DNA of 64,000 nucleotides from a bacterium (GCA_021780675.1 JAJXYH010000004.1:5668-69667); one strand, 5' to 3'; shown: positions 29,248 through 57,958, counted from the first letter of the stretch. Numbers and translations are program-made. The notes: generated by a model not told the origin, from the letters alone.

Positions 29248-29370
29248 TCTCAAAGTATACCAGAACTTAACATTGTTTTAAAGACGCTGTGTATTTTGAA
29301 AACGATATAGTTTTATCCACTTTTGTTATCTTGACAAAAAGTTATCCACATTATTAAACTGCATAACACA
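29248..29370. promoter_or_regulatory. oriC-type region: DnaA boxes between rpmH and dnaA
   Basis: TTATCCACt at 29313-29321 and a perfect TTATCCACA at 29342-29350. Confidence 0.6.
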
Positions 29371-30729: not shown

Positions 30730-30857
30730 TAGAATTGTCTTTTAACCCCCTTTTTTTACACATTCTTATCAACTCTTTATCCACATTTTTTTGAGGTTGC
30801 CTTCTTGCTTTTTTCCACTTTTCAATATAAACTACTACAACTACAAATAGTAAATAT
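30730..30857. promoter_or_regulatory. dnaA-dnaN intergenic DnaA-box/AT-rich region (second part of origin)
   Basis: TTATCAACT at 30766-30774, a perfect TTATCCACA at 30777-30785, then an AT-rich stretch at 30800-30857. Confidence 0.55.
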
Positions 30858-31964
30858 ATGAAAGTATCTTTTCTTTCAGATAAACTTCAAGAGAAGCTTG
30901 CCTTTTTAAACCATGCTGTTTCCATAAGAGGACAGCTTCCAATCCTTTCTTGTTTTTTAATAGAAGCAGGTAAAGGAAAACTTCATATAAGCTCAACGGA
31001 CCTAGAAATAGGAATAACTTCAAGCATAGCCGCAAATGTTGAAAAAGAGGGAAAGGTTGCAATACCAGCAAAAAATTTTACAGATCTTTTATCTAATCTG
31101 GAAAATAAAAAAATAACTCTGGTTCAGGAAGGAGAGGTTTTAAATTTGACAGGAGAAAAAGTTAAAGCGTCGTTTCAGATTATGAATAACGAAGAATTCC
31201 CCAAGCTATACGAAGACGAAGGAGAAATGATAGTATCGTTAAAACCTGAAGAAATAATGAAATACTTTCAAAGAGTAGGGTTTGCTGCATCTTCTGTTGA
31301 GACCTCTCGCCCGGCACTATCGGGGGTTCTTTTCGACAAGGAGAAAGAAGGGGTAGTTGTGGTAGCAACGGACAGTTACAGGCTTTCTTTACAGAAAAAC
31401 GTTTTCAAGACAACACAAAGCCTTAAAAAGCCACTTGTAATACCGTCTAGAGTAATTAGAGAATTAATGTCGATAAAAACAGATGGAACAATAAAAGTAC
31501 ATGTTTCCGAAAAGAATAATCAAGTTTTGTTTTTAACTCAGGAAACAGTTTTGGTGGGAAGACTCATAGAAGCGGAATACCCCGAATATCAGAAAATAAT
31601 TCCAAACGAATTTTCAACAAAAACAGAAGTAGGAAGAGAGGATCTTCTTAAAGCAGTTAGAATTGCATCTGTTTTTGCAAGAGAGACAGCAAACATCGTG
31701 AGGTTAATAATTGAAAAGTCAAAAATTACTGTTTCTGCAAATTCACCGTCGGTTGGGGAGGATGCCGTAGAAATTGAAGCTAAAACTACGGGGGAAAACA
31801 ATGAAATTGCATTTAACGCAAAATACCTTTTAGATATACTTTCAATTCTTGACGTAGAAGAAGTTGTATTTGAAATGAATAATCCTTTAAGCTCGGGGGT
31901 TTTTAAAATTAAAGGAGACAACTCCTTTCTACATCTTATAATGCCGATTAGGGTACAGGGGTAG
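30858..31964 (+). CDS. dnaN: DNA polymerase III beta sliding clamp
   Basis: 368 aa, three-domain clamp. Conserved LSGVLF, ATDSYRL and IMPIR motifs. Confidence 0.9.
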   Translation: MKVSFLSDKLQEKLAFLNHAVSIRGQLPILSCFLIEAGKGKLHISSTDLEIGITSSIAANVEKEGKVAIPAKNFTDLLSNLENKKITLVQEGEVLNLTGEKVKASFQIMNNEEFPKLYEDEGEMIVSLKPEEIMKYFQRVGFAASSVETSRPALSGVLFDKEKEGVVVVATDSYRLSLQKNVFKTTQSLKKPLVIPSRVIRELMSIKTDGTIKVHVSEKNNQVLFLTQETVLVGRLIEAEYPEYQKIIPNEFSTKTEVGREDLLKAVRIASVFARETANIVRLIIEKSKITVSANSPSVGEDAVEIEAKTTGENNEIAFNAKYLLDILSILDVEEVVFEMNNPLSSGVFKIKGDNSFLHLIMPIRVQG

Positions 31965-31965
31965 T

Positions 31966-32361
31966 TTACTGAGTGTTTATGAGTGGAGGGGTTTTATATA
32001 TTGTTATTAAATTATTGAACCAATTTCTAGTTAAACCACCGTTAGAAGTTAAAAATTCCTCAAACTCTTTGTTTCCGGCATCTTTGTTTGATGGATTAAT
32101 ATATAAAGTAAATTCATTTTTTGCATAACTATAATATAGAGAAAAGTTTTTTCCACGATAAGGAAGTTTATTTAAAAGATTACCGGCGCTTACTCCCTTG
32201 TCTTGTTGAGATTGCTGCCCTTTTGTAATTGGGTTATTGTTTACAGGTTTAGCTGTGACGGGAGGCTTAGGACCAGAGTTTAGATACAAAACAATTCCAA
32301 TCAAGCAAATAATTAAAACAACTGACATCGCAAAGAGTGCGTATAAAGCTTTATTACTCAT
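31966..32361 (-). CDS. membrane-anchored hypothetical protein (last gene of T4SS-like operon)
   Basis: 131 aa, one N-terminal TM. Confidence 0.35.
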   Translation of the reverse strand: MSNKALYALFAMSVVLIICLIGIVLYLNSGPKPPVTAKPVNNNPITKGQQSQQDKGVSAGNLLNKLPYRGKNFSLYYSYAKNEFTLYINPSNKDAGNKEFEEFLTSNGGLTRNWFNNLITIYKTPPLINTQ

Positions 32362-32370
32362 ATTTACATT

Positions 32371-33510
32371 TTACTGTATCGGCCTAACCGGTACAAGCCA
32401 GTACCAACCAGTACCACCTAGGTATGCAGAATACCATTTAAATTCATTAGACAAAGACGTACAGCCATTTGGATCTCTCACGTGTATATCCACACCTCCT
32501 GAGGAATTAATTCTAACATCATCAACAACAAAAGAATGACCTCCATTAATTGGGGGCCAATAAGCACCAGCAAACAATAGATATCCATTGCTCAAATAAC
32601 TTTTAGCTTGTGTGTAATTTATTGATTGAGAACCAGACTTTAGATTTACGTGTGGATCTTCATATCCAAGAGACTTAAACCAGTTATCTTTTTGGGTAGA
32701 AAATGTCCAAAAACTTGTTCCCGTACGACCGCTTCCCGGTAGGTTGGACCACCCGTTTGTGTCAAAATCAGCCGCAATTTCTGCAGGTCCATGCGTGTCG
32801 CAATAGCTACTCATAATCATTGCCAAGCTGGTTGGGCCACAACCGGTACTAGCAATTGTTCCCGAATCAAAACGCCTACTTGAATAACTTTGCCCCCACT
32901 GACAATAAAATTTATTTGTTGGAGAAGCTTTGCAACCCGAACCTGGTGGTGTGGATGAGGACCCCGAACCGGGAGGCAGGCAACAGATTAAACCCTGCCC
33001 ACAAACTAACCCTCCGGTATCTTGTACCATTGGGGGAGTCAAGGTTGTGCAATCAGTGCCGGCAGGCTTACATAAAGAACCTGTAACGGATGAGCATTGT
33101 GTTGATTGGTTATTAGCTGTTGTTGTTGGTTGACCAGTAATAACAGTTATGATTGCAGTAAAAATGATTACCACCAGTATAACTACTACCACAATTAAAA
33201 CAGGAATAATCCAGGCAGGTGCAGAAGAGACAATTACCGTAGCAATTCGTCTTTTAACCTCTTTTTTTACCCTATCTTCCAGTTTGTTTTTTGCAGCACC
33301 ACCGATATTTCTTAACGTTCCTCCTCCTGGAATGTTGCCACCACTCTGTCTTCCAGACGCTTCGTCGTTGGTGTTACCGCTCCCTATATTTCCCGTAAGA
33401 TTTCTGGACAACCTATTAATTTTAACACCCTGTTTTAAAGTGTTTGGTTTATTTACGCCCTGTTTTAAGGTGTTAGGTGTAGGTTTTCCCGAACTACTAC
33501 TGTCTGCCAT
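32371..33510 (-). CDS. membrane-anchored C39-like/CHAP-like cysteine peptidase domain protein (candidate cell-wall hydrolase of the T4SS-like locus)
   Basis: CQWGQSY...STGCGPTSLAMIMSSY (Cys nucleophile in a C39/CHAP-like context) and a downstream GGHSFVVDDV His. N-terminal tandem repeat KPNTLKQGV x2, one TM, Cys-rich linker. Confidence 0.5.
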   Translation of the reverse strand: MADSSSSGKPTPNTLKQGVNKPNTLKQGVKINRLSRNLTGNIGSGNTNDEASGRQSGGNIPGGGTLRNIGGAAKNKLEDRVKKEVKRRIATVIVSSAPAWIIPVLIVVVVILVVIIFTAIITVITGQPTTTANNQSTQCSSVTGSLCKPAGTDCTTLTPPMVQDTGGLVCGQGLICCLPPGSGSSSTPPGSGCKASPTNKFYCQWGQSYSSRRFDSGTIASTGCGPTSLAMIMSSYCDTHGPAEIAADFDTNGWSNLPGSGRTGTSFWTFSTQKDNWFKSLGYEDPHVNLKSGSQSINYTQAKSYLSNGYLLFAGAYWPPINGGHSFVVDDVRINSSGGVDIHVRDPNGCTSLSNEFKWYSAYLGGTGWYWLVPVRPIQ

Positions 33511-33529
33511 AAATTAATAATACCAGATT

Positions 33530-35392
33530 TTAATCATTTACAATGTTTGGATGTGGTGAAGACGCAGGCATTGGGTCCGGAAGCTCAATGGGTTCTTCTT
33601 GCGGATTTTCTTCAACAACATCCTCAACCTCTTGCGGCTTCTTATCCTTATCTTGCGGATTAGTAGAAATCATATCATGTTCAAAAGGCGCTGCAACTAC
33701 TTGCATTGCAACGTGATTTTGCCCTGCGAAAAACAAACCCTCACCAATATTTGCAGACAGGAGTAGTTGCTTTTCTCCAACAGTTAAATAAAAAATATCA
33801 GCAATCATATCAACCTCTGCAGGACTTTGTTTTAAAAGCATTTGGATAGAAGAGTTGGAAAGCACAGCTTTTCCATAGTCGGTTGATAAAAAATCTTCGG
33901 CATCTTGAGTTGCTGTAGTTAATGCAAGATAGTATTTTCTTGCTCTTTTAGCAACACCATACACAAATGAGGCGGAATCTTCATGCTTCATCATATACCA
34001 GGCTTCATCAAGAATTAATAAGCGTTTTTTTAGGGTTTTTCTTACCTTTGTCCAAACAAAATCTAAAATTATATGCATTGCAATTGGTCTTAATTCATCC
34101 TCCAAAGCCTTAATATTAAAAACCGTAAAAGGATTGGTAATATCAAAGTTCGACTGTTGGTTAAAAAGGCCGCTTAGGCTTCCTTTAATAAATCTTTCCA
34201 GGCGTAAAGCAAGGTCTTTAGCCGCGTTATCTTCCATTCCCAAAAGAACTTTATAAAGATCTTCCATTAGTGGTGGGGTTTTCTTTTGTGTTTCAGGGTC
34301 GGTGGTAATTCCTTTTAATCTGTATGTTTCAACGAGTGCCCTATCTAAAATTGCATCATGTTGAGCATCAAGCTCACCAAGGACTATTTTTAAAAGTCCG
34401 TGTAGGGATAAGATTTTTAAACCAAGTTCATTTTCATCTTTTTCATAAAGTCCGGAAAGATCAAATGGGTTGATTTTTATATTTGAGCTTGATGCAAAAG
34501 TTACCTCCTCGCCACCCACAAGCTCTGATAATTTAGAATATTCACCTTCAGGATCTATGATTATGATTTCTGCACCAAACATAAAATTTCTTAATGCCTC
34601 AAGCTTAATTAAATATGATTTTCCCGCCCCCGATTTTCCAAACACAACTTCATTCGCGTTTTCCAAACTGAATCTATCAAAAATGATTAATGAACCGTTT
34701 TGTTGGTTTATCCCATACATGATTCCTTTATCTTGGGCCAAAATGGCTGAGGTAAAAGGAAAGGTTGAAGCAAGCGATGTGGTATCCATATTCCTGGTTA
34801 TAAAAAGCTTATCTTGACCAAGTGGGATGGTAGACTTAAACCCTTCTTCCATTTGAAGGGTTGCGGGTTTTGGAACCATAAGGATTGAGCTTAGTGTGGT
34901 TGTAAGTTTTTTAGAAGCTTCGTTTAAGTCCTCCAATTTTTCGGAAAAAAGCGTAATATAAAGACTAAATTGGAAAAATCTTTCCATGCCTTTAGCAAGT
35001 TCTTCTTGAACCGCAAGAGCATCTTCTAAAGAGGCGGAAACCTTTGGGTCTACCTGAAGACCTTCTTCTTCCTGAGAATAGATAGTCGCCTCCATTTCGG
35101 TAATTTTTCTTCTAAGATCTGATAAAACATCTGCAGAAGAAGTTGGATATAAGAACATAGAGACATTCATTGAATGATCAAAATTAATTAATGGCTCGAG
35201 CCAGTTTGCGGAAACAAACCTCGGATACCCAACAACAAACAAAGTTTTGTAATATTTTTCTCCTACGCGAATATGGTTAAAGTCTACTTCAACAGAAGGA
35301 GGCGCGATAACATCAGGAATAGAAACCAAATCTCGCTTGATATCTGGTTGTGCATCGTCGTTTTTTACAGTATTTTTTTTGCCGAAAGTCAT
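33530..35392 (-). CDS. virB4: VirB4/TrbE/CagE-family type IV secretion ATPase (ATPase part)
   Basis: IRVGEKYYKTLFVVGYPRFVSANWLEPL motif, Walker A FGKSGAGKSY, Walker B LLILDEAWYMM (DEAW). Confidence 0.75.
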   Translation of the reverse strand: MTFGKKNTVKNDDAQPDIKRDLVSIPDVIAPPSVEVDFNHIRVGEKYYKTLFVVGYPRFVSANWLEPLINFDHSMNVSMFLYPTSSADVLSDLRRKITEMEATIYSQEEEGLQVDPKVSASLEDALAVQEELAKGMERFFQFSLYITLFSEKLEDLNEASKKLTTTLSSILMVPKPATLQMEEGFKSTIPLGQDKLFITRNMDTTSLASTFPFTSAILAQDKGIMYGINQQNGSLIIFDRFSLENANEVVFGKSGAGKSYLIKLEALRNFMFGAEIIIIDPEGEYSKLSELVGGEEVTFASSSNIKINPFDLSGLYEKDENELGLKILSLHGLLKIVLGELDAQHDAILDRALVETYRLKGITTDPETQKKTPPLMEDLYKVLLGMEDNAAKDLALRLERFIKGSLSGLFNQQSNFDITNPFTVFNIKALEDELRPIAMHIILDFVWTKVRKTLKKRLLILDEAWYMMKHEDSASFVYGVAKRARKYYLALTTATQDAEDFLSTDYGKAVLSNSSIQMLLKQSPAEVDMIADIFYLTVGEKQLLLSANIGEGLFFAGQNHVAMQVVAAPFEHDMISTNPQDKDKKPQEVEDVVEENPQEEPIELPDPMPASSPHPNIVND

Positions 35393-36051
35393 TTTTCCAA
35401 TACCTCCTGCTCTGATGGCTTAACTAAATTTTCCGCCTGCTCAAAGTTAATATTGGCATCGTTAAATATTTCATAAAAAAGTTTTACTAATTTTTCCTTT
35501 CCCAGTATTTCAGCTCTTAAATTAACTCTTCCTATTTGGTTTAATAATCCTTCTGCTTTTGAGTGTAGGGCAGATTTTGCGCCAACCGCAAATAAATTTT
35601 GCTCAGAATTGACTCCCATTTGTTGAGAAACTCCACCGATACCGCTTTCCAAAGAAGAATAATAAATCACAATATAGAATTTTTTGTCAAGAATGGTATT
35701 AACCTTCACAAGTTCGGAGATAAAATCTTTATACATTGAGATATATTTTGAGAATAATGGATTTTTTGATTGTTGTGCCTCGTCTGCTAAGAGCTTTATA
35801 TACGATGAAATATTTACCCTTTTACTTCTTATGATTATTTGTACAGGGTAGGATATTGAATTCAAAAGCGCAGCATAAGCATAAATTTTAGCATCCTGTT
35901 CGTCAGGTGAAAGAAGTGCAAAGTTCGTGGCACTTATTTCAAGGACAATACATGCATAACCACCATTTAAAATTACCACATCATCAACAATATCCTGGAT
36001 TTCGGTAAATTTTTGGGTTGAGTTAGATAATTTTTGGGCAGAGCCTTTCAT
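35389..36051 (-). CDS. VirB4 N-terminal-domain-like protein (probable split N-terminal part of VirB4)
   Basis: The pattern VDDVVILNGGYACIVLEISATNFALLSPDEQDAKIYAYAALLNSISYPVQIIIRSKRV follows the CagE_TrbE_VirB N-domain logic. ATGA overlap with the downstream ATPase ORF. Combined length ~840 aa, close to canonical VirB4. Confidence 0.4.
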   Translation of the reverse strand: MKGSAQKLSNSTQKFTEIQDIVDDVVILNGGYACIVLEISATNFALLSPDEQDAKIYAYAALLNSISYPVQIIIRSKRVNISSYIKLLADEAQQSKNPLFSKYISMYKDFISELVKVNTILDKKFYIVIYYSSLESGIGGVSQQMGVNSEQNLFAVGAKSALHSKAEGLLNQIGRVNLRAEILGKEKLVKLFYEIFNDANINFEQAENLVKPSEQEVLEK

Positions 36052-37382
36052 TAATTAAAAAGAGACCTCCTTAATTCTTCTCTTGTATCTATTGATATAA
36101 TTTCAAGCGGCATAATTATTTCACCGGACGCTTTAAATCCTACCGTTTCAAACTTATTTTGTCCTCTTGGATCTTCAAATTCTATACTATAGTCACCGTC
36201 TGTAAGAGCAGTTGCAGAAGCAAATTGTCCCAAAGCGTTTGTTTTAAATGCCCTGACGGCATTTCCCTGTAAATCTTTTACCTCAACCAATATATTTGGT
36301 AGGGGGTTTCCTCTTGGATCTTTAACGATACCAGAAATAACATTTGGAAATTCAGGGGCAGCAACTAAACCAACACTTTTGGTTAAGTTTTGCGGAATAC
36401 TTCTCACTAATTTTGCTTCCTGTGGTTGTAGTTGTGCAATTTGTGGTATAGCAATATTTTGATTTTGCGAAGTCATTTGCTTTTGAATTTGTACTAATTT
36501 ATCTTCAAGTTGTTGTTTTTGAAGCTGCATATCGCTTAAGCTTTGCTGAAGTTCTAAAACTTTTTGATGGGCTTCTAAAAATTGTTTTTCATCTTGCTGC
36601 GAAACTGTTTGTAATGGCGCAGGTTGCGGCGGAGCGGGTAGTGGAGTAGTGGCTGTATCCGGTTTAGGCTTTAACTGCTGTGAGACGTCTTGAATTATTT
36701 CCGGAGTTTTTATTGTGGTGTCTATGGTATTTATAGCTGCTGCTGGTTTAACAGGGCTTGTAATATTGGGTAAAGTTGCCAGCTGTTCCACCGCTTCAGG
36801 TTGCGGAGCTTGATTTGAGTATGCGTGCTGCGGAATATAGCTCGGTAGGTTAACAGGCGTTCCACTTTTTTGATAATGATCAACATTTTGTAAAAACACC
36901 ATTTCTTTTTGGTCAAGCTTGCTGGCTGATTTGGGAAGTGTTTTCAAAAAACTTTGAAGCTGCTGATCGGACATATCAGAAATAGTTTGACGTTTTTTTG
37001 CAAAGTCACTAATTTTTTTTACCTCTTGTTCTTGTAACCCCTCCGAACCCTGTTGATAAATATATTGAGTAGGCTTAGTTAGGGCTTTTATTAAATGCGT
37101 TATCATTACATCAAGCGGCCTTCCGTCTATTGGTAAAAATGCCAAAGAGGCTCCCATAGCGGCAGAAAGAACAGCAAGGGGTATTTTAAGTAGAAAAAAA
37201 AGCGGAGAAATGTAAAAAACCCAAGCAACTATAAATCCCGCAGTAAGGTAGCCGAATTGTTTTATGGTCATACTCCCAATTAGTTTAAACTGGAATCCCG
37301 TAATGTCTTGTGGTATCGGATGGTTTTCGATGTCCATATAAAAAAGCATATAACGTGAAAAATCTGGTTTCAAGAGAATCAA
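36051..37382 (-). CDS. PrgI/VirB3-like membrane protein fused to Q/P-rich coiled region and a C-terminal carboxypeptidase-regulatory-like (transthyretin-fold) domain
   Basis: N-terminal IPQDITGFQFKLIGSMTIKQFGYLTAGFIVAWVF resembles the PrgI family. C-terminal GIVKDPRGNPLPNILVEVKDLQGNAVRAFKTNALGQFASATALTDGDYSIEFEDPRG resembles the CarboxypepD_reg fold. ATGA/ATG overlap with the next gene. Confidence 0.45.
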   Translation of the reverse strand: MILLKPDFSRYMLFYMDIENHPIPQDITGFQFKLIGSMTIKQFGYLTAGFIVAWVFYISPLFFLLKIPLAVLSAAMGASLAFLPIDGRPLDVMITHLIKALTKPTQYIYQQGSEGLQEQEVKKISDFAKKRQTISDMSDQQLQSFLKTLPKSASKLDQKEMVFLQNVDHYQKSGTPVNLPSYIPQHAYSNQAPQPEAVEQLATLPNITSPVKPAAAINTIDTTIKTPEIIQDVSQQLKPKPDTATTPLPAPPQPAPLQTVSQQDEKQFLEAHQKVLELQQSLSDMQLQKQQLEDKLVQIQKQMTSQNQNIAIPQIAQLQPQEAKLVRSIPQNLTKSVGLVAAPEFPNVISGIVKDPRGNPLPNILVEVKDLQGNAVRAFKTNALGQFASATALTDGDYSIEFEDPRGQNKFETVGFKASGEIIMPLEIISIDTREELRRSLFN

Positions 37383-37431
37383 AGTGGGTCAAAAGTCTTT
37401 GAAAGTATATCTAAATTTCCGTGAAAAATTC

Positions 37432-37752
37432 TTATCCGCAAGTTCTGAATGAGAATTCAAATGAAGTGGTGTCAATACACCCAACCCCTGTTACACTTCC
37501 TATAAATTTAATGATGAAAAATGACAGCATTACTAAAACTAACCCTAACACGGCAAAGGCAATTGTTTTTCTGGCTTGGTCAAGTTTCTTGGGATCACCC
37601 CCCGAAACTAAAAACCGTATTCCACCTATGATAATAACAATTACGGCAATAGATCCGGACAGTAAAATTCCCCAGTAAATAAAATTTAATATTATTATTG
37701 GTATACAACTAATTGTTGCAACCCCATTAGAACTACACGTTCTCCAGTCCAT
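37432..37752 (-). CDS. VirB2/TrbC-type T4SS pilin-like protein (short paralog)
   Basis: Shared C-terminal module: TM...SGGDPKKLDQARKTIAFAVLGLVLVML. Confidence 0.55.
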   Translation of the reverse strand: MDWRTCSSNGVATISCIPIIILNFIYWGILLSGSIAVIVIIIGGIRFLVSGGDPKKLDQARKTIAFAVLGLVLVMLSFFIIKFIGSVTGVGCIDTTSFEFSFRTCG

Positions 37753-37803
37753 GATTTAAGCTTAAAAGAAATAAAAACAAATTGCAAGTAGGTTTAGTTA
37801 TGT

Positions 37804-38202
37804 TTAGAAAGCTGTGGAGCCATTAATGTTTGGAATGACGACATTAGACAATGTATTAAGTCCAAAGAACTGGAGTATTAAGTTCAAAACCAAGTATGAA
37901 AGGAATATGATTACCAAACCAACGATTGCTGCAACAATATGTTCTCTAGCCGAAGCAACAGCTTGTTTGTCTCCGCCGGATGTTAACCATTTAAATCCTC
38001 CCCAAACAAGATAGAGAAGTGCAACTAAAATTGCTACTGCAAAAATTAAAGCAATCACAGTACCAACGATTGAACCGATATTATTGGAGCTTAAAGCACA
38101 AAGATGATTATATGGTCCTGCACATGCATCAACAGCAAAAGCAGGAACTGTAACTGTAAGAAATACTGCTGCGGGGGTAACCAGTGCGATTGCTTTTTTC
38201 AT
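37804..38202 (-). CDS. VirB2/TrbC-type T4SS pilin-like protein
   Basis: Signal peptide (AFA-VD). C-terminal LYLVWGGFKWLTSGGDKQAVASAREHIVAAIVGLVIIFLSY. Confidence 0.6.
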   Translation of the reverse strand: MKKAIALVTPAAVFLTVTVPAFAVDACAGPYNHLCALSSNNIGSIVGTVIALIFAVAILVALLYLVWGGFKWLTSGGDKQAVASAREHIVAAIVGLVIIFLSYLVLNLILQFFGLNTLSNVVIPNINGSTAF

Positions 38203-38271
38203 GTATATATTTATACTAATAAAGTTTTGATTTGTTTGTCAAGTACCAATTTAGCTTCAATTTAACATTAA

Positions 38272-39003
38272 TTAAAGAGTCGGTACGTTAAAAAACTGTA
38301 AGATAAGATTTACAATCAAAGCAGCAAGAAATACTATAATCAAACCAACGATTGCAAAAATAACTTTTTGTCTGGCAGAGGTTAAAGTCTGTTTGTTTCC
38401 ACCGGACATTAACCAGTCAAATCCTCCCCAGACCAGGTAAAAAAGCGCAAGAAGAATTGCAATTACAAACAAAATGTTTATTCCGAAGGCAAGAGCAGTA
38501 TTGTATTTTACAATAGGTACTCCGCCCGGCTGTCGCGCTTTAAAGAAATTTGCCAAAGTATCTAAAGCAACTGCGGGATTAACTTCGCCCCAATTCCCCC
38601 AACTGTTACCGGTTTGAGTACCATTATTATTTGAAATACATCCTGCAGAATGATCACATTTGTCTCCGGTTGAGCAGGTTAATGTTATTATATTGCAGGT
38701 TGTTCCTTGTGGGGCACCACTGCTTGGAAAGCAATTCTGAGTGGTTCCTTCCCAGTTGCAGTTTTGTGGACAGGTTTTACAATTCCCGCCAGAAGCAACA
38801 CAACAAACTCCCAATCCACCCTGACCACCTAATGAACAGACCCTAGTACTATCAACATATTGATTCGCTTGGCCACAAGTTGTTACACCGTTTGCTACGC
38901 AATCCAGGCATCCTGGAGGAAGGAGCGCTCCTTGGGCAACAGGGGTTTTAATCACGAAAATAAATAATAATAAAAAACTAAAAAAATAAAATAATTTTTT
39001 CAT
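38272..39003 (-). CDS. VirB2/TrbC-type pilin-like protein with Cys-rich N-terminal ectodomain
   Basis: Signal peptide, ~25 Cys in the ectodomain. C-terminal FYLVWGGFDWLMSGGNKQTLTSARQKVIFAIVGLIIVFLAAL. Confidence 0.6.
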   Translation of the reverse strand: MKKLFYFFSFLLLFIFVIKTPVAQGALLPPGCLDCVANGVTTCGQANQYVDSTRVCSLGGQGGLGVCCVASGGNCKTCPQNCNWEGTTQNCFPSSGAPQGTTCNIITLTCSTGDKCDHSAGCISNNNGTQTGNSWGNWGEVNPAVALDTLANFFKARQPGGVPIVKYNTALAFGINILFVIAILLALFYLVWGGFDWLMSGGNKQTLTSARQKVIFAIVGLIIVFLAALIVNLILQFFNVPTL

Positions 39004-39005
39004 AA

Positions 39006-40454
39006 TTATTGATTAAAAATATTTAATATATCAACTCCAATGAAATTCATAAGGGTAAATGTAAAAATTATTAGAACCAGTCCTACAATTGCTGCAGTTA
39101 ATTGCTCCTGCGCATCTTTAGTTTTTTCGGGGTTTCCTTGTGAAACTATTAATTTATAAGCGGAGTAAATTATTAAAAGTGTTGCGATTCCGCCTGCAAT
39201 AGATAAAATAATTGAAAAGATTTTTGAAACTAACCCCTGAGAATCAGTGCTAAAATTACCAAATGCTGTTGGGCAAGTTGTTATATATTTCCCGTTCACA
39301 AGGGTTGTCGTGCAGGGAAGTTGACCGTTGGTAAATCCAGAACCAAGCCCCCCTCCACAACCAACCCCTTCAACGCACTGACTGGAGCTACAGCTTTGGT
39401 AAGTTGGAGAAGTAGTCAAAGCGGGTATATCTGGATGACTTTGTCTAGTACATTTTTGATTTTCCTGATTGGCAAGACTATTAAAAGTATAACCGCTAGG
39501 GCAGACAGCACAGTCTGTTCCTCCTCCTCTGCAGTGTGTTGCAGTACAGTCTGAAGCGCTGGTATAAGCCCCTGTCCCCGTACCTGTATGCACTACGCAT
39601 CCATATTGTGTGCAGTCATACCCGCCGCGGTTTGCATCAGCAGACCAAGTGCAACAGGTTTGAGTTGCGGCGCTTTGGCTTTTGCAGTAGGCGTTTCCAC
39701 TTGAGGTTATAATTCCCCCTGCTTGATGGCAGACGTTATTATTAGCTACACACTCTCCATCTCCTCCAGCGGGTGCAAAAGACTGGCAGGTTGGCGGTTC
39801 ACACTTGTTGGTTTTTAAATTACAGGTGTAACCTGTGTTTGCCCCACTACAGCTTCCATCAGCATTAGCGCTACAGGAGACTGTTAAATTGCAGTTCTTA
39901 TTGTAAACTAATCCACAATTTTTTGTGCCGCAAATTGCTGCTTGAGTGCAGCTTGGTGAAACGCATTTGCCGCTTCCCTGGTCCCATGAATAACCAGAAC
40001 TGCAAAGGCATTCTAAAATCGGTACCGCACCCGATTGGTTTGAATCTATACAGTTTAAACCAAGATTTGGTTTACATTGATACGTTCCATCGCAAGATTG
40101 ACCATAAGTTTTGTAATATGTGCAAACTCCAGTAGTTTTATTGGTATAAGCGAGAATAGAATTGCACGTACACATGCCATTTGGAGTGTAATATGTGGTG
40201 CAAGTTTGTTTACCTGTTGTGGGGTCGGTGACACATGTTTCATGTGAAGTATCTGTAGGGTTACTACAATACGTTGGGTAGCAACAAATACCAGGTGTTG
40301 CACCGCACGGCGCATTGGTGTTGGGCGTGCAATCTACCGCGGCAGCTGCCCAGGCATTATTTTTTAAAGGGGCTAAAGTAAAAAATAATATAAATAATAA
40401 AATTGCAGGAAACAAAAACTTAAGCAAACGCTTCATAAAATTATAGTAGAACAA
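39006..40454 (-). CDS. VirB2/TrbC-type pilin-like protein with large (~400 aa) Cys-rich ectodomain
   Basis: Signal peptide, about 60 Cys. C-terminal AYKLIVSQGNPEKTKDAQEQLTAAIVGLVLIIFTF pilin module. Confidence 0.55.
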   Translation of the reverse strand: MFYYNFMKRLLKFLFPAILLFILFFTLAPLKNNAWAAAAVDCTPNTNAPCGATPGICCYPTYCSNPTDTSHETCVTDPTTGKQTCTTYYTPNGMCTCNSILAYTNKTTGVCTYYKTYGQSCDGTYQCKPNLGLNCIDSNQSGAVPILECLCSSGYSWDQGSGKCVSPSCTQAAICGTKNCGLVYNKNCNLTVSCSANADGSCSGANTGYTCNLKTNKCEPPTCQSFAPAGGDGECVANNNVCHQAGGIITSSGNAYCKSQSAATQTCCTWSADANRGGYDCTQYGCVVHTGTGTGAYTSASDCTATHCRGGGTDCAVCPSGYTFNSLANQENQKCTRQSHPDIPALTTSPTYQSCSSSQCVEGVGCGGGLGSGFTNGQLPCTTTLVNGKYITTCPTAFGNFSTDSQGLVSKIFSIILSIAGGIATLLIIYSAYKLIVSQGNPEKTKDAQEQLTAAIVGLVLIIFTFTLMNFIGVDILNIFNQ

Positions 40455-40479
40455 AACTTAAATAAAATGCAAGTATAGT

Positions 40480-41913
40480 TTAGTCTACGAATTTAAAACC
40501 ACGCCCTTTAACAGTTAAAATATGAATTGGGCTGTTAGGGTTATTTTCAATTTTTTTTCTCAACCTAAAAATTAATTGATCTAAAGCCTGGTCGGTTACA
40601 CCCAACGTGGTTTTTTGGTTTCCCCAAACAGCGTTAATGATGTCTTCTTTTTCTAAAATCTTTTCTTTCTGAGAGATTAAAAATTTTAATAACTTAAATT
40701 CGGAAGAAGTTAAATTATCGGAAATTACACCTTCGCCCAGTTTAATTTCATTAGTGTTTTCATCAACAGTTAATTTAAGACCGGTTTTTACAGTTTGGGA
40801 TTTAATAATTGCGTTTTTAATAAATTCTCCAAATAGCGGAATTGTTACTTTTCCACCGGAAACAAGGAAGATTTTTTCTAAAAAAGGTTGTTGTTCTTTG
40901 TTGTCGATAAAATATTGCTGCTCTGAAGGGTTTAAACTGTTCCAGATAGAGAAAAGCGAGCTTCTTACCGGGCGCTGTGAAAGCAAATAAGTTATTAATT
41001 GGTTGTTTTCGGAAATTAATTTTTTTTCGGCGGTAAGTGCCGATTCAAGCGAAAGAATGGTTAGTCTTCCGTGTCCTGCAGTTAATTTTGATATTTCATC
41101 AAGCATTTTTTTATCGACTTTTTTATTGATTATTTTTTCAAGATATGAAATTCTAAAATCAAGACCCGGCTTGTCTAAGATGGGCAAATAGATAATTTTT
41201 TCCGCCAAATATTCAAAAAAATCGGCAAAAAGCATTGGTTCAGTTACATCTTCGAGGGGTTTATTTAAAGAAAATACAGCAGAAAAATAATATTTTGCCC
41301 TGTTTCTTAAAACTCTAAGGTTGGCAAAAAATTCGTTTGTGAGCATCGGAATATATTCTTCGAATCTATCAAAAAGGAGAATCAGTTTTAAATTTCTTTC
41401 AACACATAAATAGTCAATTGTTTTTTTAAGGCCTGCAAAAAGCACCATTTCATCGTTGAACCCGATACTCTCTTTAAAATAGTTATTAATTACTTCGTAC
41501 TCTTTTTTTAAACCTCTTTCGCGCAAGGAATCTAAAATTCCCAAGAAGATAAATTTATTTGCATCAAATAACGGTCTTTTTCTAATTTCGGAAAAGTTTA
41601 AAAGGACAAAATGAAAATTTTTCTGATTTTCCCCAAGATGAATAAGTCTTACTTTTTTATTGTAAGAAAGGAGCCCCAAAAGATTAGATCTGCCAACACC
41701 CGGAATAGATACGACTTGACAGGAATTGCCCTCTTTTATAAATTTGAGAATTTTTTCAATTTCTTCAAATCTTGAATTTTGCGGGTATAAACTTTCGAAA
41801 TGTTCTGTTTCCATAAAGATATTGTAATTTTTTTGTAATACAAATATCAAGCTAAAAAATTCCCGCGGATTTAAAATTTTGGCATATGAAAGAACGCGGA
41901 GATGAATTGACAA
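40480..41913 (-). CDS. transcriptional regulator: AAA-like NTPase domain (GVGRSN Walker A variant) + C-terminal OmpR/PhoB-type winged helix; immediately upstream of pilin operon
   Basis: VVSIPGVGRSNLLGLL, LILLFDRFEE. C-terminal INAVWGNQKTTLGVTDQALDQLIFRLRKKI...ILTVKGRGFKF. The true start is probably the internal METEHF. Confidence 0.5.
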   Translation of the reverse strand: MSIHLRVLSYAKILNPREFFSLIFVLQKNYNIFMETEHFESLYPQNSRFEEIEKILKFIKEGNSCQVVSIPGVGRSNLLGLLSYNKKVRLIHLGENQKNFHFVLLNFSEIRKRPLFDANKFIFLGILDSLRERGLKKEYEVINNYFKESIGFNDEMVLFAGLKKTIDYLCVERNLKLILLFDRFEEYIPMLTNEFFANLRVLRNRAKYYFSAVFSLNKPLEDVTEPMLFADFFEYLAEKIIYLPILDKPGLDFRISYLEKIINKKVDKKMLDEISKLTAGHGRLTILSLESALTAEKKLISENNQLITYLLSQRPVRSSLFSIWNSLNPSEQQYFIDNKEQQPFLEKIFLVSGGKVTIPLFGEFIKNAIIKSQTVKTGLKLTVDENTNEIKLGEGVISDNLTSSEFKLLKFLISQKEKILEKEDIINAVWGNQKTTLGVTDQALDQLIFRLRKKIENNPNSPIHILTVKGRGFKFVD

Positions 41914-44282
41914 ACCAGGCTAATTCCTTTAGTCTTGAAGGAAGAGGAGGTATTATGCCGGACGGAGGAACACCAGAACAACCAGAGCCAAATTTAAGTC
42001 CAGAAATAAGCGGAGATGCGTTAGCGTCGTCAAATAATTCTGTTGCAAGACTTGAAGAGTTAGCGGGAGAAGGCTCCGGAGAGAGAATTAGAGAAGAGCA
42101 AAAAAAATCCCAAAGAAAATTTTTGGAAAGTCAAGAATCCGATAGGCTGCCAAGATCATTTGAAGACTTGGTCGGGAAAATAATGAATTCGGCAGAAGCG
42201 CAGTGGAAAGAAGATGGAGATCAGGCATTAATAGATAAAGAGGGAAATATTAATAAAGAAAATTTTTTAGCCTGGGTAAGAGATAGGATGATGTGGCTTC
42301 ATGATTTTAATTCGGTTACTGAGACCAGCTTTTTTTCCGACGTTAACATAACTGTTGGTTATGCCAAAATTACCCTTTACGATATGATTTTTACCGGTAA
42401 ATACTTTTTACACGAAGTAAAGGGTAATGATGGAAATATTTCTTACCATAAAAGTGATGATCTTGAAAAACTTAAAGATCAGCTTATAAACGAAGCATTT
42501 CTTTTTGGAAATTCCAGAAATAATGATGTTAAGTATAAGTCGATGATGCCTAATGAAGCAGAACTTCCAAAACTCTTGCAACAAATATATTTTGCTAACC
42601 CGTTTTTAAGAGGCAGCAACTTTCAGGATATTTTAACACTTAATTCTGTTGATAAAAATAGAATTCAACAGCTAAGAGATGAATCCGGCAATGTTGCAGA
42701 GTTTGATAAAAACAGGATTAAAAATCTGGTTGAAAAAGATTCAAGTGTTGGAGAAGGGGTAAGAAGAGCACTCCTTGCCTATTACCACATACGTGATATT
42801 GAGATGCTTAAAAAAATATTTGAGGTGGAGGAAGGTAAAAAAATTCAGAATTTAGCTCTTTTTATGGAAGGATACGATGATTATGATTCAAAAACTTTAA
42901 GACTTGCAGTTGATGAAAATGGCGCAAATAAACCTAAGAAAAAGGGTGAAGCAAATCAGGATTTAAAAGACACAGAAGCAGCGGAAAATATCCCCGATGG
43001 GGAAAAAACTTCAGTTGAATACGATAGCGATGGGAAAGTTAAGTTAGATACTAAAGCCCAAATCAAACGATTTACGGATTATATGAATCCATTTAATTTG
43101 GCCAGAAAAGAGGAAAGACAAGAAGGTGAAATTCGGGAAAGAATTAGGCAATCAATAATGCAGGTAACAGGACTTACTTATTCGGAAGCAAAATATGCAG
43201 AGTCATGGGCGTATTCAATGGCCAGATGGACGGGAATTGGCGCAAGAAACGATACGGGAGCCGCTGCATTTGATGCATGGAGTAAACCGCAAAATTTACT
43301 TCCATACAGACTTAAGCAGCTGGAAGATAAAAGACTGGGTGTATTTGGGAATAAGTTTAATCTGGCAGGAATTAAAAGAGCAGGACTTACGATGTTTGAG
43401 GGGATTTCCGATATCCATGGCAGAAATATTATAGAGGCAATTCAGGGAGGACAAGGAATGGAATTTAACGCAGATAATCCGTTTAAAACCACAGATGCAA
43501 AAACAAATCTTGCTTTTGGAAAAGATACAGGAAGCTTTTTTGTTAGTAATCATGTGATGAACTCATTTAAGATCTACGATTTTATAATTAACCATACAGA
43601 CTTTAATATCGAAGATATGATTACATATGATACTTTTGGAAGGCCGATAATCGACCATGAAAAAGCGGATAAAATAATTGATGGTATTCAAAAGGCTATC
43701 AGGTACGCGTATTGCACATGGGATGGGATAAACTACAACAAATCTATAAGAGTTATGGAAAAAGATGTGGATGGAAACGATGAAATAAAAGAAATGCCAC
43801 TTATTGCAGCGATGTTTGGACCCGATATTTTAAAAATGATCCAAAACGATATTAGTGAGAGGGAAGCAAGGCTTAAGCCAGGAGAGTCTTTAACACGGGG
43901 CGTAAGAACTAATATTTGGACAATTGCTCCTGATCACGATAATTTCCAGATGGATATGGAAAAAGTACAATCGAAAGCTGTTAGGGAAGTGCTTTGGAAA
44001 AGTATATTACAGTACTTAATCGCAGAAGAAGTACATTCACATAGAAGCAGGGCCAGTGAAGAAACAAGGTATGGCTATGATATGGTAGAAAAGGTGTACG
44101 ACTTCTTAAGAAGAAAAGGCATTGCCGATAAAGCGGAAATTGATGAGATGCGAAAACTTAGTAATTCTACTCTTAGGGTATTAAATATAGAAGATTTTGT
44201 AATGGAGGCAGGTAAAGGAACACTTAAAGGTTTTTGGAGTATGATGAGAATAATAATGAGCGGTCTTATGACAGGGAAGTAA
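41886..44282 (+). CDS. large soluble hypothetical protein (798 aa), divergent from the regulator
   Basis: No TM and no recognisable catalytic motifs. Acidic N-terminus. The start may be the downstream MPDGGTPEQ. Confidence 0.4.
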   Translation: MKERGDELTNQANSFSLEGRGGIMPDGGTPEQPEPNLSPEISGDALASSNNSVARLEELAGEGSGERIREEQKKSQRKFLESQESDRLPRSFEDLVGKIMNSAEAQWKEDGDQALIDKEGNINKENFLAWVRDRMMWLHDFNSVTETSFFSDVNITVGYAKITLYDMIFTGKYFLHEVKGNDGNISYHKSDDLEKLKDQLINEAFLFGNSRNNDVKYKSMMPNEAELPKLLQQIYFANPFLRGSNFQDILTLNSVDKNRIQQLRDESGNVAEFDKNRIKNLVEKDSSVGEGVRRALLAYYHIRDIEMLKKIFEVEEGKKIQNLALFMEGYDDYDSKTLRLAVDENGANKPKKKGEANQDLKDTEAAENIPDGEKTSVEYDSDGKVKLDTKAQIKRFTDYMNPFNLARKEERQEGEIRERIRQSIMQVTGLTYSEAKYAESWAYSMARWTGIGARNDTGAAAFDAWSKPQNLLPYRLKQLEDKRLGVFGNKFNLAGIKRAGLTMFEGISDIHGRNIIEAIQGGQGMEFNADNPFKTTDAKTNLAFGKDTGSFFVSNHVMNSFKIYDFIINHTDFNIEDMITYDTFGRPIIDHEKADKIIDGIQKAIRYAYCTWDGINYNKSIRVMEKDVDGNDEIKEMPLIAAMFGPDILKMIQNDISEREARLKPGESLTRGVRTNIWTIAPDHDNFQMDMEKVQSKAVREVLWKSILQYLIAEEVHSHRSRASEETRYGYDMVEKVYDFLRRKGIADKAEIDEMRKLSNSTLRVLNIEDFVMEAGKGTLKGFWSMMRIIMSGLMTGK

Positions 44283-44286
44283 TTAT

Positions 44287-46071
44287 TTAAGATCTAATTA
44301 TCGGTTTTCCATTTCGATCAACTAGCCCCGTCCCGCCCGTGTCTGTTCCCCCTGTAATATTAGATTCATTAGGTTTTTTTCCAGTAATTTCTTCATGCAC
44401 CGCTTTTAATTGGTCATGTCTGCCGGAAGCTGTTGCGACTTCTTGCGAGGACGGAGTTCTGGCTACAAAACCGGTTGCTCTTTGCAGTGCATTCCTTTGG
44501 ACTGTTTTAGATGACTCATTATAGTTTCCGGCTGTATATCTTTGTAGCCTGCTTCCAACAAAACCTCTCATTTGATTTGTTCTTGGATCTCTATAGTACA
44601 TTCTGGATGCAACACCCCCGGCAAATCCTGCAACAGCTGCTTGTCCTGTGCCAACGCCGCCCATACTAAGCCCACTACCTCCTGCGCCAAAGGTTTTTCT
44701 AACCTTTTCGACAATGCTGGGTGATGCGAGAATAAAACCAACTGCAATTAAAGCTCCATACATTGTCTGATTCCCTCCACCTGTTACATTTCCAATTATG
44801 GGGGGGTTAAACATTGTACCGGCATTTGACTGCGACAGCGCGTCCATGATAGTTCTTGCGACAATAAATACAAATAAGGTTGCAGGAAATGGCGCAAGAT
44901 TCCCGGCCATATTTTTTATCCAGGAGGTAAAACCTAAGCTCCCACTAGCCCCGGGTATAAGACCACCCAGAATCCATAAAGGAGCCAAGATTGTTCCAAG
45001 CAAAACATTGATAAAACATTTAAGAAGCGCAAACCAAAGCCTAAACAGGGCAACAATAACGGCAATTACAAAAATAAGAAATACAATAATCCCGGCAATA
45101 AAACCAATAAGACTTGCAATTAAATGCCAGAAAGCATCCATAATCGTATTAACCCAACAGCCTAAGAAAAAGCATCCCTGACTAGAATTATTATCGGTCA
45201 TTGCTCCAGAAACTTGGTTGGATGCCAGAACATTATGTACTAGGCTTCCAACACTCGAAGCAGCTGAGGCAGAAAGACCTAAAATTCCACCATCTTTTCC
45301 GCCAAACATATCATTAGTAAATCCAATACTTGACTCCGTTGCCCACTTAGATATATCTACGTGTTGTGCATTAGGAGTTAGCGTATCAATTACCAAAAAA
45401 TTAGTAACCCACATGGCATCTATTAAAAGTCCGGCAATTGCATAGGAAAAAGTGATCATTACAAGCCCGATAATAAGTTTTGGAATTTGGTTTTGGATTG
45501 TCATAACAGTTCGGGGGTCAATTCTTAAGCGTAGCATTATTGCAATCCCTACAATTATAAAAATCACCATCATTAGAAGGTATGCAAGATTTCTAAAAAT
45601 TGTAAACAAACCAAGAACAGGTGATAGTCCTACAAAACCAATACTATTGTCCGCTGCATTTGCAGTTTTTACAATACCGAAATTATTTGCAGCATAGGCA
45701 ATATAATCGGAAGTATGTACGGGTATTAAATAAGTTGCGGTAAGTAAATTTCCCATCATGCCTATTGCTCCTCCACCACTTTCTTTAACAAAGCCGATTC
45801 TTCCGGTATTTTTATCTATTCCGAGACATGATTGTTTTGAATTTATAGGATCAATGCCTGTAAGTTGGCAAATCATAGAAGACATGGTTTCAATCATTAC
45901 ATTTTGAGTCCAGGTATGTAAATTGACCGGAACATTAGGATCCATATTGGATGAAAGCGTTTGCTTAAGTTGAGTGGAAGAGCTCTGAGCAAACGACTTG
46001 TGGGGGCTGATAATAAAAACCAATAAAATAAAGGCAAAAAACAAACCTAAGACCTTGGCAGCAAACCTCAT
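44287..46071 (-). CDS. VirB6/TrbL-like polytopic membrane protein
   Basis: Signal peptide (SFA-QS), at least 7 hydrophobic helices, Gly-rich C-terminal tail. The assignment rests on architecture and context only. Confidence 0.4.
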   Translation of the reverse strand: MRFAAKVLGLFFAFILLVFIISPHKSFAQSSSTQLKQTLSSNMDPNVPVNLHTWTQNVMIETMSSMICQLTGIDPINSKQSCLGIDKNTGRIGFVKESGGGAIGMMGNLLTATYLIPVHTSDYIAYAANNFGIVKTANAADNSIGFVGLSPVLGLFTIFRNLAYLLMMVIFIIVGIAIMLRLRIDPRTVMTIQNQIPKLIIGLVMITFSYAIAGLLIDAMWVTNFLVIDTLTPNAQHVDISKWATESSIGFTNDMFGGKDGGILGLSASAASSVGSLVHNVLASNQVSGAMTDNNSSQGCFFLGCWVNTIMDAFWHLIASLIGFIAGIIVFLIFVIAVIVALFRLWFALLKCFINVLLGTILAPLWILGGLIPGASGSLGFTSWIKNMAGNLAPFPATLFVFIVARTIMDALSQSNAGTMFNPPIIGNVTGGGNQTMYGALIAVGFILASPSIVEKVRKTFGAGGSGLSMGGVGTGQAAVAGFAGGVASRMYYRDPRTNQMRGFVGSRLQRYTAGNYNESSKTVQRNALQRATGFVARTPSSQEVATASGRHDQLKAVHEEITGKKPNESNITGGTDTGGTGLVDRNGKPIIRS

Positions 46072-46305
46072 ATTAATTACAGTTTGTATGATTTTTATTT
46101 GCTTGTCAAGTTTAAGATGAAGAGTAGTATAAATTATTTTATATGCATGCGCGGGATAATTCCTTTCCCAAATAGTATAAGGCAGGATTTAAATACTCTG
46201 TCAAATAGGTTTAAAAAATTATTATATTGCAGAATTTCTGCGGATATTCTGCATAATTTAAGCAACTTATTAAATTTAACAAATAAAAGATAAGGCTTAA
46301 ATTAG

Positions 46306-46392
46306 CGGAGAGGGCGAGATTCGAACTCGCGAAGAGCTTGCACTCTTAGCGGTTTTCAAGACCGCCGCACTAGTCCACTATGCGACCTCTCC
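46306..46392 (-). tRNA. tRNA-Ser (anticodon TGA), class II long variable arm
   Basis: Manual fold: acceptor GGAGAGG/CCTCTCC, anticodon stem GCGGT/ACCGC, loop CTTGAAA, T-arm GCGAG-TTCGAAT-CTCGC. Confidence 0.8.
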
Positions 46393-49000: not shown

Positions 49001-49087
49001 GGAGGGGTCGCATAGTGGACTAGTGCGGCGGTTTCGAAAACCGCTATAGCCGAAAGGTTATCGTGAGTTCGAATCTCACCCTCTCCG
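49001..49087 (+). tRNA. tRNA-Ser (anticodon CGA)
   Basis: Same scaffold as the other Ser tRNAs (GGAGGGGTCGCATAGTGGACTAGTGCGGCGGT). Anticodon loop TTCGAAA. Confidence 0.8.
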
Positions 49088-49193
49088 CACGTCGCAATAA
49101 GACTTTCGCTTTTCACTCCAACATGGTTGGAGCTTAAAATTTTAAGTCTTTTGCCCCTTTTAAAATTATTGCGTAATTTTATAGAATGTTTTT

Positions 49194-51172: not shown

Positions 51173-51262
51173 GGAGGGGTCGCATAGTGGACTAGTGCGC
51201 TTGCTTGGAAAGCAGGTATATCCGCAAGGGTATCGAGGGTTCGAATCCCTCCTCCTCCGCCA
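51173..51262 (+). tRNA. tRNA-Ser (anticodon GGA), CCA encoded
   Basis: Acceptor GGAGGGG/CTCCTCC, anticodon stem CTTGC/GCAGG with loop TTGGAAA, long variable arm, T-arm GAGGG-TTCGAAT-CCCTC. Confidence 0.8.
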
Positions 51263-57853: not shown

Positions 57854-57942
57854 GGAGGAGTCGCATAGCTAGGTCCATTGCGAGGGTTTGCTAAACCCTT
57901 GAGCTGAATAAGCTCGCGTGAGTTCGAATCTCACCTCCTCCG
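57854..57942 (+). tRNA. tRNA-Ser (anticodon GCT)
   Basis: Acceptor GGAGGAG/CTCCTCC, anticodon stem AGGGT/ACCCT with loop TTGCTAA, long variable arm, T-arm GTGAG-TTCGAAT-CTCAC. Confidence 0.75.
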
Positions 57943-57958
57943 CTACCGCCCGGGGATA

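Follow-up and report, generated by a model that had tools for sequence, protein, structure and literature searches.

What kind of machine is encoded by the genes that lie directly against dnaN in a Candidatus Levybacteria chromosome? The question is raised by positions 31966 to 46071 of a 64-kb stretch of bacterial DNA (GCA_021780675.1 JAJXYH010000004.1:5668-69667; 64,000 nucleotides, here called the window), in which an original prediction, made from the sequence alone, had placed a minimal locus resembling a type IV secretion system (T4SS). The homologues and related loci are named Candidatus Levybacteria or Levyibacteriota, and the DNA belongs to Candidatus Levybacteria (Microgenomatia), within the candidate phyla radiation (CPR) or Patescibacteria. 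The locus is real and intact, and it is very probably a chromosomal, non-conjugative T4SS of the Patescibacteria type; this statement concerns the identity of the system and not its direction of transport. Its closest relatives appear to be the conjugation machines of monoderm bacteria assigned to MPF_FATA.

The evidence begins with the genes themselves, which lie where they had been reported; the stop codon of the last one begins at 31966, one base past the dnaN stop that ends at 31964. All four tandem paralogs predicted to be VirB2/TrbC-like pilins exceed the cut-off of the T4SS_pilin family (PF18895, 26.6 bits; Table 1). Each has two hydrophobic helices with a charged loop between them, and three of the four carry Sec signal peptides. 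Pairwise identities over the pilin domain range from 23 to 54% (54% between the proteins of 243 and 132 amino acids, aa) and fit the values published for arrays of 2–11 VirB2-like pilins, which average 25% identity with a maximum of 54% (PMC12102498). The 132-aa protein is a candidate major pilin, and a promoter-like element (TTGACA-18-TAGTAT, 38242-38213) lies ahead of its gene. The 476-aa protein, which scores 35.4 bits against the pilin-like model NF045849 (under the cut-off of 40), is a candidate adhesive or tip pilin. No recognizable domain was found in the cysteine-rich ectodomains of the pilins at 39006-40436 and 38272-39003; their 42 and 14 cysteines would imply that, in this monoderm CPR bacterium, both proteins are heavily disulfide-bonded outside the cell.

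The PrgI/VirB3-like assignment holds as well (PF12666, cut-off 27 bits). For this protein we used the ATG start, following the gene callers. It has a transmembrane (TM) hairpin at 45-85 and a long C-terminal extension, Q/P-rich and coiled, which ends in a CarboxypepD_reg beta-sandwich and is kept in relatives.

The ATPase had been read as a VirB4 apparently split into two open reading frames (ORFs). The family and the two ORFs are correct, but the cause is not a frameshift. The 620-aa ORF reaches 387 bits against NF045971 (“VirB4-like, CD1110 family”; cut-off 325) over profile positions 180-734 of 752; it also matches P-loop_TraG (97.7 bits), DUF87 and AAA_10 in Pfam, as well as PDB entry 4ag5 (VirB4; E 6.6e-43), and its Walker A (GKSGAGKS at 252) and Walker B (LLILDE at 458) motifs are intact. 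The 220-aa ORF and the 620-aa ORF match successive parts of the VirB4_plasma profile (positions 98-238, E 1.7e-11, and 282-893) and tile an 831-aa Bacillus VirB4 in order (residues 22-154 and 241-818). The shorter ORF matches the TrsD model NF041427 under its cut-off (E 1.5e-4) and carries a precomputed annotation as TraC-like (PF26593), with no useful match among PDB sequences. A frameshift or pseudogene was rejected on four counts: the trsD stop overlaps the virB4 ATG (ATGA), virB4 has its own Shine-Dalgarno sequence (GGAGG 9 nt upstream of the ATG, read from the sequence), four independent assemblies show the same arrangement, and all close VirB4 homologues are short (577-690 aa). The two genes are predicted to be translationally coupled, and their products are the known, conserved pair of TrsD and short VirB4, which together amount to one full-length VirB4. 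VirB4 is 72-85% identical across Levybacteria, a level of conservation that indicates purifying selection. The CD1110 match, together with the nearest plasmid-borne, non-CPR VirB4s (29-37% identity), all of which are from monoderms, points to an MPF_FATA affinity.

The weakest of the named components is the VirB6-like polytopic protein. Nothing in Pfam or NCBIfam matched its sequence, and a profile built from 41 homologues also found nothing among PDB sequences. Only fold comparison points to VirB6, the top structural match of the model being TrwI; we regard the product of 44287-46071 as a divergent VirB6 with moderate confidence.

Table 1. Genes and promoter-like elements of the T4SS region and the neighbouring origin genes, in window coordinates.
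Feature	Coordinates	Strand	Details
dnaA	29371..30729	+	Bac_DnaA 222 bits; origin marker
dnaN	30858..31964	+	All three DNA_pol3_beta domains matched; converges on T4SS operon
Bitopic protein, 131 aa	31966..32361	-	Last operon gene; N-terminal TM helix (residues 1-33), Pro/Gln-rich linker, C-terminal domain of ~70 aa
Peptidase_C39_2 protein, 379 aa	32371..33510	-	Papain-like, Cys-rich, membrane-anchored; PF13529 26.7 bits (cut-off 24)
VirB4 ATPase, short form, 620 aa	33530..35392	-	Without N-terminal domain
TrsD-like protein, 220 aa	35389..36051	-	Free-standing homologue of VirB4 N-terminal domain
PrgI/VirB3-like membrane protein	36051..37337	-	428 aa from ATG (443 aa from TTG 37382); PrgI PF12666 35.6 bits; CarboxypepD_reg 34.5 bits
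VirB2-like pilin paralog, 106 aa	37432..37752	-	T4SS_pilin 33.0 bits; two TM helices; no signal peptide; Cys pairs in both tails
VirB2-like pilin paralog, 132 aa	37804..38202	-	T4SS_pilin 38.5 bits; TrbC E 0.003; signal peptide and two TM helices
VirB2-like pilin paralog, 243 aa	38272..39003	-	T4SS_pilin 28.2 bits; Cys-rich N-terminal ectodomain, 14 Cys
VirB2-like pilin paralog, 476 aa	39006..40436	-	T4SS_pilin 39.4 bits; ectodomain of ~370 aa with 42 Cys; ATG start
Promoter-like element, pilin-to-131-aa-protein operon	40443..40472	-	TTGCAT-18 nt-TACTAT, 6 nt before ATG (read from sequence)
Regulator, 444 aa	40480..41814	-	Cdc6/ORC-like AAA+ domain and C-terminal OmpR/PhoB winged helix; Trans_reg_C 69.8 bits
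Promoter-like element, regulator	41821..41850	-	TTGATA-18 nt-TACAAT, 6 nt before ATG
Orphan protein, 798 aa	41886..44282	+	Soluble; between VirB6 and regulator
Divergent VirB6-like polytopic membrane protein, 594 aa	44287..46071	-	Signal peptide and at least 5 TM helices

The position of the locus is as telling as its content. Canonical dnaA and dnaN genes, DnaA boxes that flank dnaA, the minimum of the cumulative GC skew (~28-36 kb) and a left flank of jag-yidC-rnpA together place the locus against oriC. Perfect DnaA boxes (TTATCCACA) occur at 29342-29350 and 30777-30785 and nowhere else in the 64 kb; boxes with one mismatch lie at 29313, 30689, 30708 and 30720. The GC skew is flat over the T4SS locus and positive past it. 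The operon (31966-41814, ~10 kb) is transcribed toward oriC (~29.3-30.8 kb) and hence head-on to replication.

We compared the locus with those of 40 species-level genomes retrieved with VirB4. The gene order pilins-prgI-trsD-virB4 recurs across these relatives, with trsD immediately preceding virB4 in 38/38 related loci. Sufficient flanking sequence is available for 29 loci; in every one of them dnaN (followed by dnaA) is convergent and lies -28 to 5,988 bp downstream of virB4, and the head-on orientation is kept. The remaining 11 loci, whose sequence runs out less than 4 kb past virB4, are outside this count. The convergent arrangement extends to loci labelled WWE3 and Saccharibacteria, at a VirB4 identity of 58%. 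Twelve of the related records are titled “uncultured Gammaproteobacteria bacterium”, with VirB4s 70-79% identical to that of the window; on Levybacteria-type third-party metagenome-assembled genomes, these titles look like a taxonomic mislabel. The original prediction had proposed to be judged by profile matches and by synteny, and on both it fared well: the ORFs match T4SS families, and the genes are co-localized and origin-proximal in every relative where this could be determined.

These data bear directly on a rival explanation, in which an integrative conjugative element (ICE) has decayed or been domesticated and the locus is its remnant, lying beside dnaN by chance and encoding no working machine. 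The VirB4 family (CD1110) and PrgI are indeed typical of conjugative elements of Firmicutes, a related plasmid locus in Embleya has a type IV coupling protein (T4CP) and a relaxase-like gene beside its homologous VirB4, and the GC content inside the locus is slightly over the window mean. However, all ORFs are intact with their catalytic motifs preserved, order and position are kept in 29-38 species-level genomes, and VirB4 is strongly conserved across the order. A profile scan of all window ORFs of at least 248 aa found no integrase, transposase, relaxase or T4CP, and both flanks are housekeeping (jag-yidC-rnpA-dnaA-dnaN, ruvABC, rpoD, dnaG, tRNAs, tmRNA/smpB). In S. epibionticum, epibiotic growth requires a homologous system (SEML1_0006-0019, pilin array included, without coupling protein or relaxase; Wang et al., 2023; PMC10633639). 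The remnant explanation is therefore largely refuted, and we consider it extremely improbable; the locus is a core, origin-proximal one rather than mobile cargo, as first proposed. A gene-dosage benefit of this site in a slow grower is uncertain, and the operon is transcribed against the replication fork; the high expression proposed earlier is conjectural.

The same scan bears on what the machine lacks. As predicted, no match to T4CP (VirD4), relaxase, VirB11 or VirB8-10 families was found among these ORFs, and no ORF in the window matches VirB5 or VirB7. The missing T4CP and relaxase agree with the earlier preference for a pilus or contact apparatus over a conjugative element, a reading that is also published for Patescibacteria (PMC12102498; PMC10633639; PMC12857230).

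A system without T4CP and relaxase could also be dedicated to DNA uptake, as in Helicobacter ComB or archaeal Ced, importing DNA for transformation or as a supply of nucleotides. ComB lacks the same two components, CPR bacteria lack nucleotide synthesis, the T4SS of class ABY1 is co-localized with comF, recG and radA, and VirB4 gives weak matches to CedB (E 2.3e-14) and CedD. These matches are far below the family cut-offs, however (CedB 52.9 bits against 700, CedD 22.9 against 600), and no competence genes lie beside the locus. Moreover, competence in S. epibionticum depends on type IV pili and ComEC, and deletion of comEC leaves viable cells whereas the T4SS is essential. A competence machine is thus quite improbable here.

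Among known systems, the locus most resembles the T4SSs of other Patescibacteria. Quiñonero-Coronel et al. (2025; PMC12102498) surveyed 2,474 virB4 genes in this group and described an MPF_FATA ancestry, a partner set in which TrsD is the most frequent member and PrgI and VirB6 also occur, rare relaxases, and dnaA/dnaN proximity in Paceibacteria and Microgenomatia, for which they too suggest a gene-dosage effect. A 2025 review gives the same account. The window shares the MPF_FATA-like VirB4, adjacent TrsD, PrgI/VirB3, divergent pilin array, putative VirB6, peptidase gene just downstream of virB4, absence of relaxase and T4CP near virB4, and the dnaA/dnaN neighbourhood, which is explicit for Microgenomatia. 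For Microgenomatia the survey calls VirB6 “scarce” and finds few cases of VirB3 linked to virB4, whereas the window and 38 Levybacteria loci have PrgI next to it and a putative divergent VirB6 ~9 kb upstream. The survey does not mention the AAA+/winged helix-turn-helix (wHTH) regulator, the 798-aa orphan or the head-on orientation described here.

Papers from between 2023 and 2025 had thus already described loci of this kind, the lack of a relaxase and the placement near the origin, and this is no new kind of system. Our additions are small: fold support for VirB6, a Cdc6/ORC-like fold for the regulator, promoters of leaderless type, the 798-aa orphan, the head-on orientation, and homologous loci in Bacillota and Actinomycetota. 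Patescibacteria account for a large part of bacterial diversity and spend their lives attached to host cells, and no T4SS before theirs had been shown to be indispensable for the growth of its owner. The window provides a clean, complete Levybacteria example that fills gaps in the survey for Microgenomatia (the putative divergent VirB6 and the linked PrgI), and it offers candidates for regulation, in the AAA+/wHTH protein and the leaderless promoters, and for a substrate, in the 798-aa orphan.

Conjugative MPF_FATA systems (CTn2 CD1110-type, pCF10 Prg/Pcf, pGO1 Trs) share with the window the CD1110 VirB4, PrgI, TrsD, a cell-wall hydrolase gene downstream of virB4 and the absence of an outer-membrane core. 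In contrast to them, the window has VirB2-like pilins but no relaxase, T4CP, VirB8-like protein (PrgL) or PrgB-type adhesin, and its locus is chromosomal, core and origin-proximal, where theirs is on a mobile element. The MPF_T systems Agrobacterium VirB/VirD4 and R388 Trw have in common with it a VirB2-type pilin (two TM helices, charged loop), VirB3, VirB4 and a putative VirB6; VirB5, VirB7, VirB8, VirB9, VirB10, VirB11 and VirD4 are absent here, the envelope is monoderm, and VirB4 is split. There is also a likeness to the T4SS of Mycoplasma ICEs, as the pilins match the Mbov_0395 pilin-like model (35.4 and 25.3 bits) and TrsD and VirB4 tile the Mbov_0397 VirB4 model; in the comparison with Mbov_0395, Mbov_0396 and Mbov_0397, however, scores are under the cut-offs (40 and 590), and the window has no ICE backbone.

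Homologous loci outside the CPR carry pilins too. One in Pontibacillus (NZ_CP062975) has two T4SS_pilin genes, TrbL-like, PrgI/TraL-like and TrsD-like genes, a 621-aa VirB4 (37% identical) and a peptidoglycan hydrolase, and neither a T4CP nor a relaxase lies within 10 kb; another, in Streptomyces (NZ_CP081497), combines pilin-like and TrsD-like ORFs, one of each, with a 622-aa VirB4. Both replicons are large and non-mobilizable. On a Bacillus mycoides plasmid (NZ_CP036106), a TrbC/T4SS_pilin pilin and a PrgI-like protein accompany an unsplit VirB4 of 831 aa. The pilins of these Bacillota and Actinomycetota loci score over the cut-off for PF18895/PF04956 (Pfam, phmmer), and a tblastn search of plasmids with the 132-aa pilin gave no match. 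Unlike the window, the loci are neither at oriC nor from CPR bacteria, and their hydrolases are NlpC/P60 and M23, or lytic transglycosylase/C40; no homologue of the AAA+/wHTH regulator or the 798-aa protein was detected at any of the three. Because all three carry pilins, VirB2-like pilins are not restricted to Patescibacteria among monoderms, and the relatives that combine pilins with a split VirB4 are relevant to the origin of the pilins, which may have come down together with the machine or been co-opted at a later stage. The Embleya plasmid encodes a 349-aa PrgI-family protein (L048:7380-8429) with a TrsD-homologous region (residues 138-248, E 2e-10), i.e., a PrgI-TrsD fusion, which adjoins the short VirB4, T4CP and relaxase-like gene.

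How might such a machine work? We propose that TrsD/VirB4, docked on PrgI and VirB6, would pull membrane-inserted pilins out and polymerize them into a VirB2-type tube, while the peptidase would open the cell wall locally. The long cysteine-rich pilins may act as adhesive or tip subunits, and the tube would contact or penetrate the host bacterium and serve as a conduit. As to what passes through it, uptake of host material is our tentative choice, export of proteins seems rather unlikely, and a function in adhesion only would be still harder to credit. Uptake is favoured over export because a T4CP is absent here and the t4cp homologue of S. epibionticum is not essential, so that recruitment by a T4CP seems dispensable. 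It is also favoured because ComEC-dependent transformation is not the essential function, and because a preprint on a cultivated relative reports tubular structures that reach and penetrate the host, with uptake of host RNA (bioRxiv 10.64898/2026.06.21.733656). Apart from the missing T4CP, these reasons come from organisms other than this one and would apply here by analogy.

Several points weigh against our reading of the locus as a working, non-conjugative T4SS. Pilus, substrate and transport direction all lie beyond the reach of sequence. A T4CP or relaxase could sit outside the 64-kb window, and Patescibacteria commonly have T4CP homologues at a great distance from virB4. The functional evidence comes from Saccharimonadia, not Microgenomatia. 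No profile match was found in the window for a VirB8-like (PrgL/TraM) scaffold. Finally, the C39 domain of the peptidase is accessory, because its score only just exceeds the cut-off and no more than 3/29 relatives share it; the N-terminal and TM module of this protein is more widespread.

One argument for protein export involves a gene that the original prediction did not mention. The 798-aa orphan has no match in Pfam, NCBIfam or the PDB, including Pfam searches with 30 family members and a profile search of the PDB, and no TM helix or Walker A motif was found in it. Its family comprises 255 representative clusters of 800-1600 aa. It occupies the same position in seven of the relatives and lies between VirB6 and the regulator in at least eight Levybacteria genomes, and the block of VirB6, 798-aa gene (on the opposite strand) and regulator recurs in several of them. 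It diverges far faster than VirB4 (22-56% identity compared to 69-85%).

If the T4SS were an effector translocator, exporting proteins into or onto the host bacterium, this orphan or the Sec-exported cysteine-rich proteins could be its substrates. Effector systems without a T4CP are known (Ptl, Brucella VirB), the orphan is soluble, fast-diverging and syntenic with the T4SS, the virB4-dnaN gap of relatives holds variable single-pass cysteine-rich proteins, and Wang et al. favour the view that such systems “may instead export proteins” (PMC10633639). On the other hand, we found no recognizable effector domain or secretion signal and no coupling protein for recruiting cytoplasmic substrates, and export has no experimental support; we consider it doubtful. 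A more specific and considerably more speculative idea is that the orphan is the missing partner of the T4SS that lacks a coupling protein: it might be an effector or substrate translocated into the host bacterium, or it might take over substrate recruitment in a lineage-specific way, with its expression set by the divergently transcribed AAA+/wHTH regulator.

This regulator had been described as an AAA-like/winged-helix protein starting at a TTG (41913). The domain description is right, but the start is at the ATG at 41814, because homologues begin with “MExEHFESLYP”. Its AlphaFold2 model (pLDDT 87) matches Orc4 (Foldseek 4e-6) and Cdc6 (1e-5) over the N-terminal ~340 residues, and its C-terminus aligns with the PhoB effector domain with a TM-score of 0.72 (Foldseek; PhoB/OmpR effector domains). 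We rejected an OmpR/PhoB response regulator: the winged helix is present, but the N-terminus has the Cdc6/ORC-like AAA+ fold and there is no receiver domain. The P-loop is degenerate (PGVGRS, K-to-R); the orthologue in one relative retains a canonical GSGKS. Homologues are 58-74% identical; in relatives the gene is found upstream of the pilin array, but its orientation differs between genomes. A paralog 24% identical to the regulator is encoded 16 kb away (23191-24492, minus strand).

The locus had also been described as a single gene train. There are instead at least two transcription units, because a separate predicted promoter serves the regulator, whose orientation is flipped in relatives. 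The regulator promoter arrangement, CTTGATAT...TTACAAT-N6-ATG, is kept in five relatives, and the geometry of the element ahead of the pilin operon, probably also a promoter, is matched in three. Because the -35/18-nt/-10 elements end 6 nt before both start codons across genomes, leaderless transcripts are implied. A generic scan found promoters and terminators at the level of shuffled sequence (63 vs. 58.5 and 17 vs. 16.1), and these counts are therefore uninformative alone on operon structure; the promoter-like sites retained here are those conserved across genomes.

At the other end of the operon, the C39-like peptidase reported earlier passes its family cut-off (Table 1). It has a single TM segment (88-130) and 11 cysteines, and Cys224 and His325 are invariant among four homologues; a search of PDB sequences gave no useful match. 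It is a candidate cell-wall remodelling enzyme, in the role of VirB1, or a candidate pilin-processing enzyme. The 131-aa bitopic protein has no match in Pfam or NCBIfam. Homologues occupy the same position in three relatives, and hhalign (96.8%) links the protein to a second small family. We considered it as a VirB8-like scaffold and rejected this, as there is no profile match and the ectodomain of ~70 aa is too small for an NTF2-like fold. Among the relatives, the stretch between virB4 and dnaN varies, with lengths of 0.3 to 6 kb, but always encodes same-strand, single-pass membrane proteins. These are of two types: a cysteine-rich protein (108-1243 aa) with a shared N-terminal/TM module and a variable ectodomain, and cysteine-free proteins from several small families.

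Elsewhere in the window, three large ORFs of 570, 456 and 992 aa (25121-26833 and 51265-52635 on the minus strand, 52649-55627 on the plus strand) have no Pfam match; each has 1-2 hydrophobic segments and no cysteines. Just past the T4SS region, four tRNA-Ser genes fall within a 12-kb span (46305-46392, 49001-49088, 51173-51262 and 57854-57943), with the anticodons TGA, CGA, GGA and GCT.

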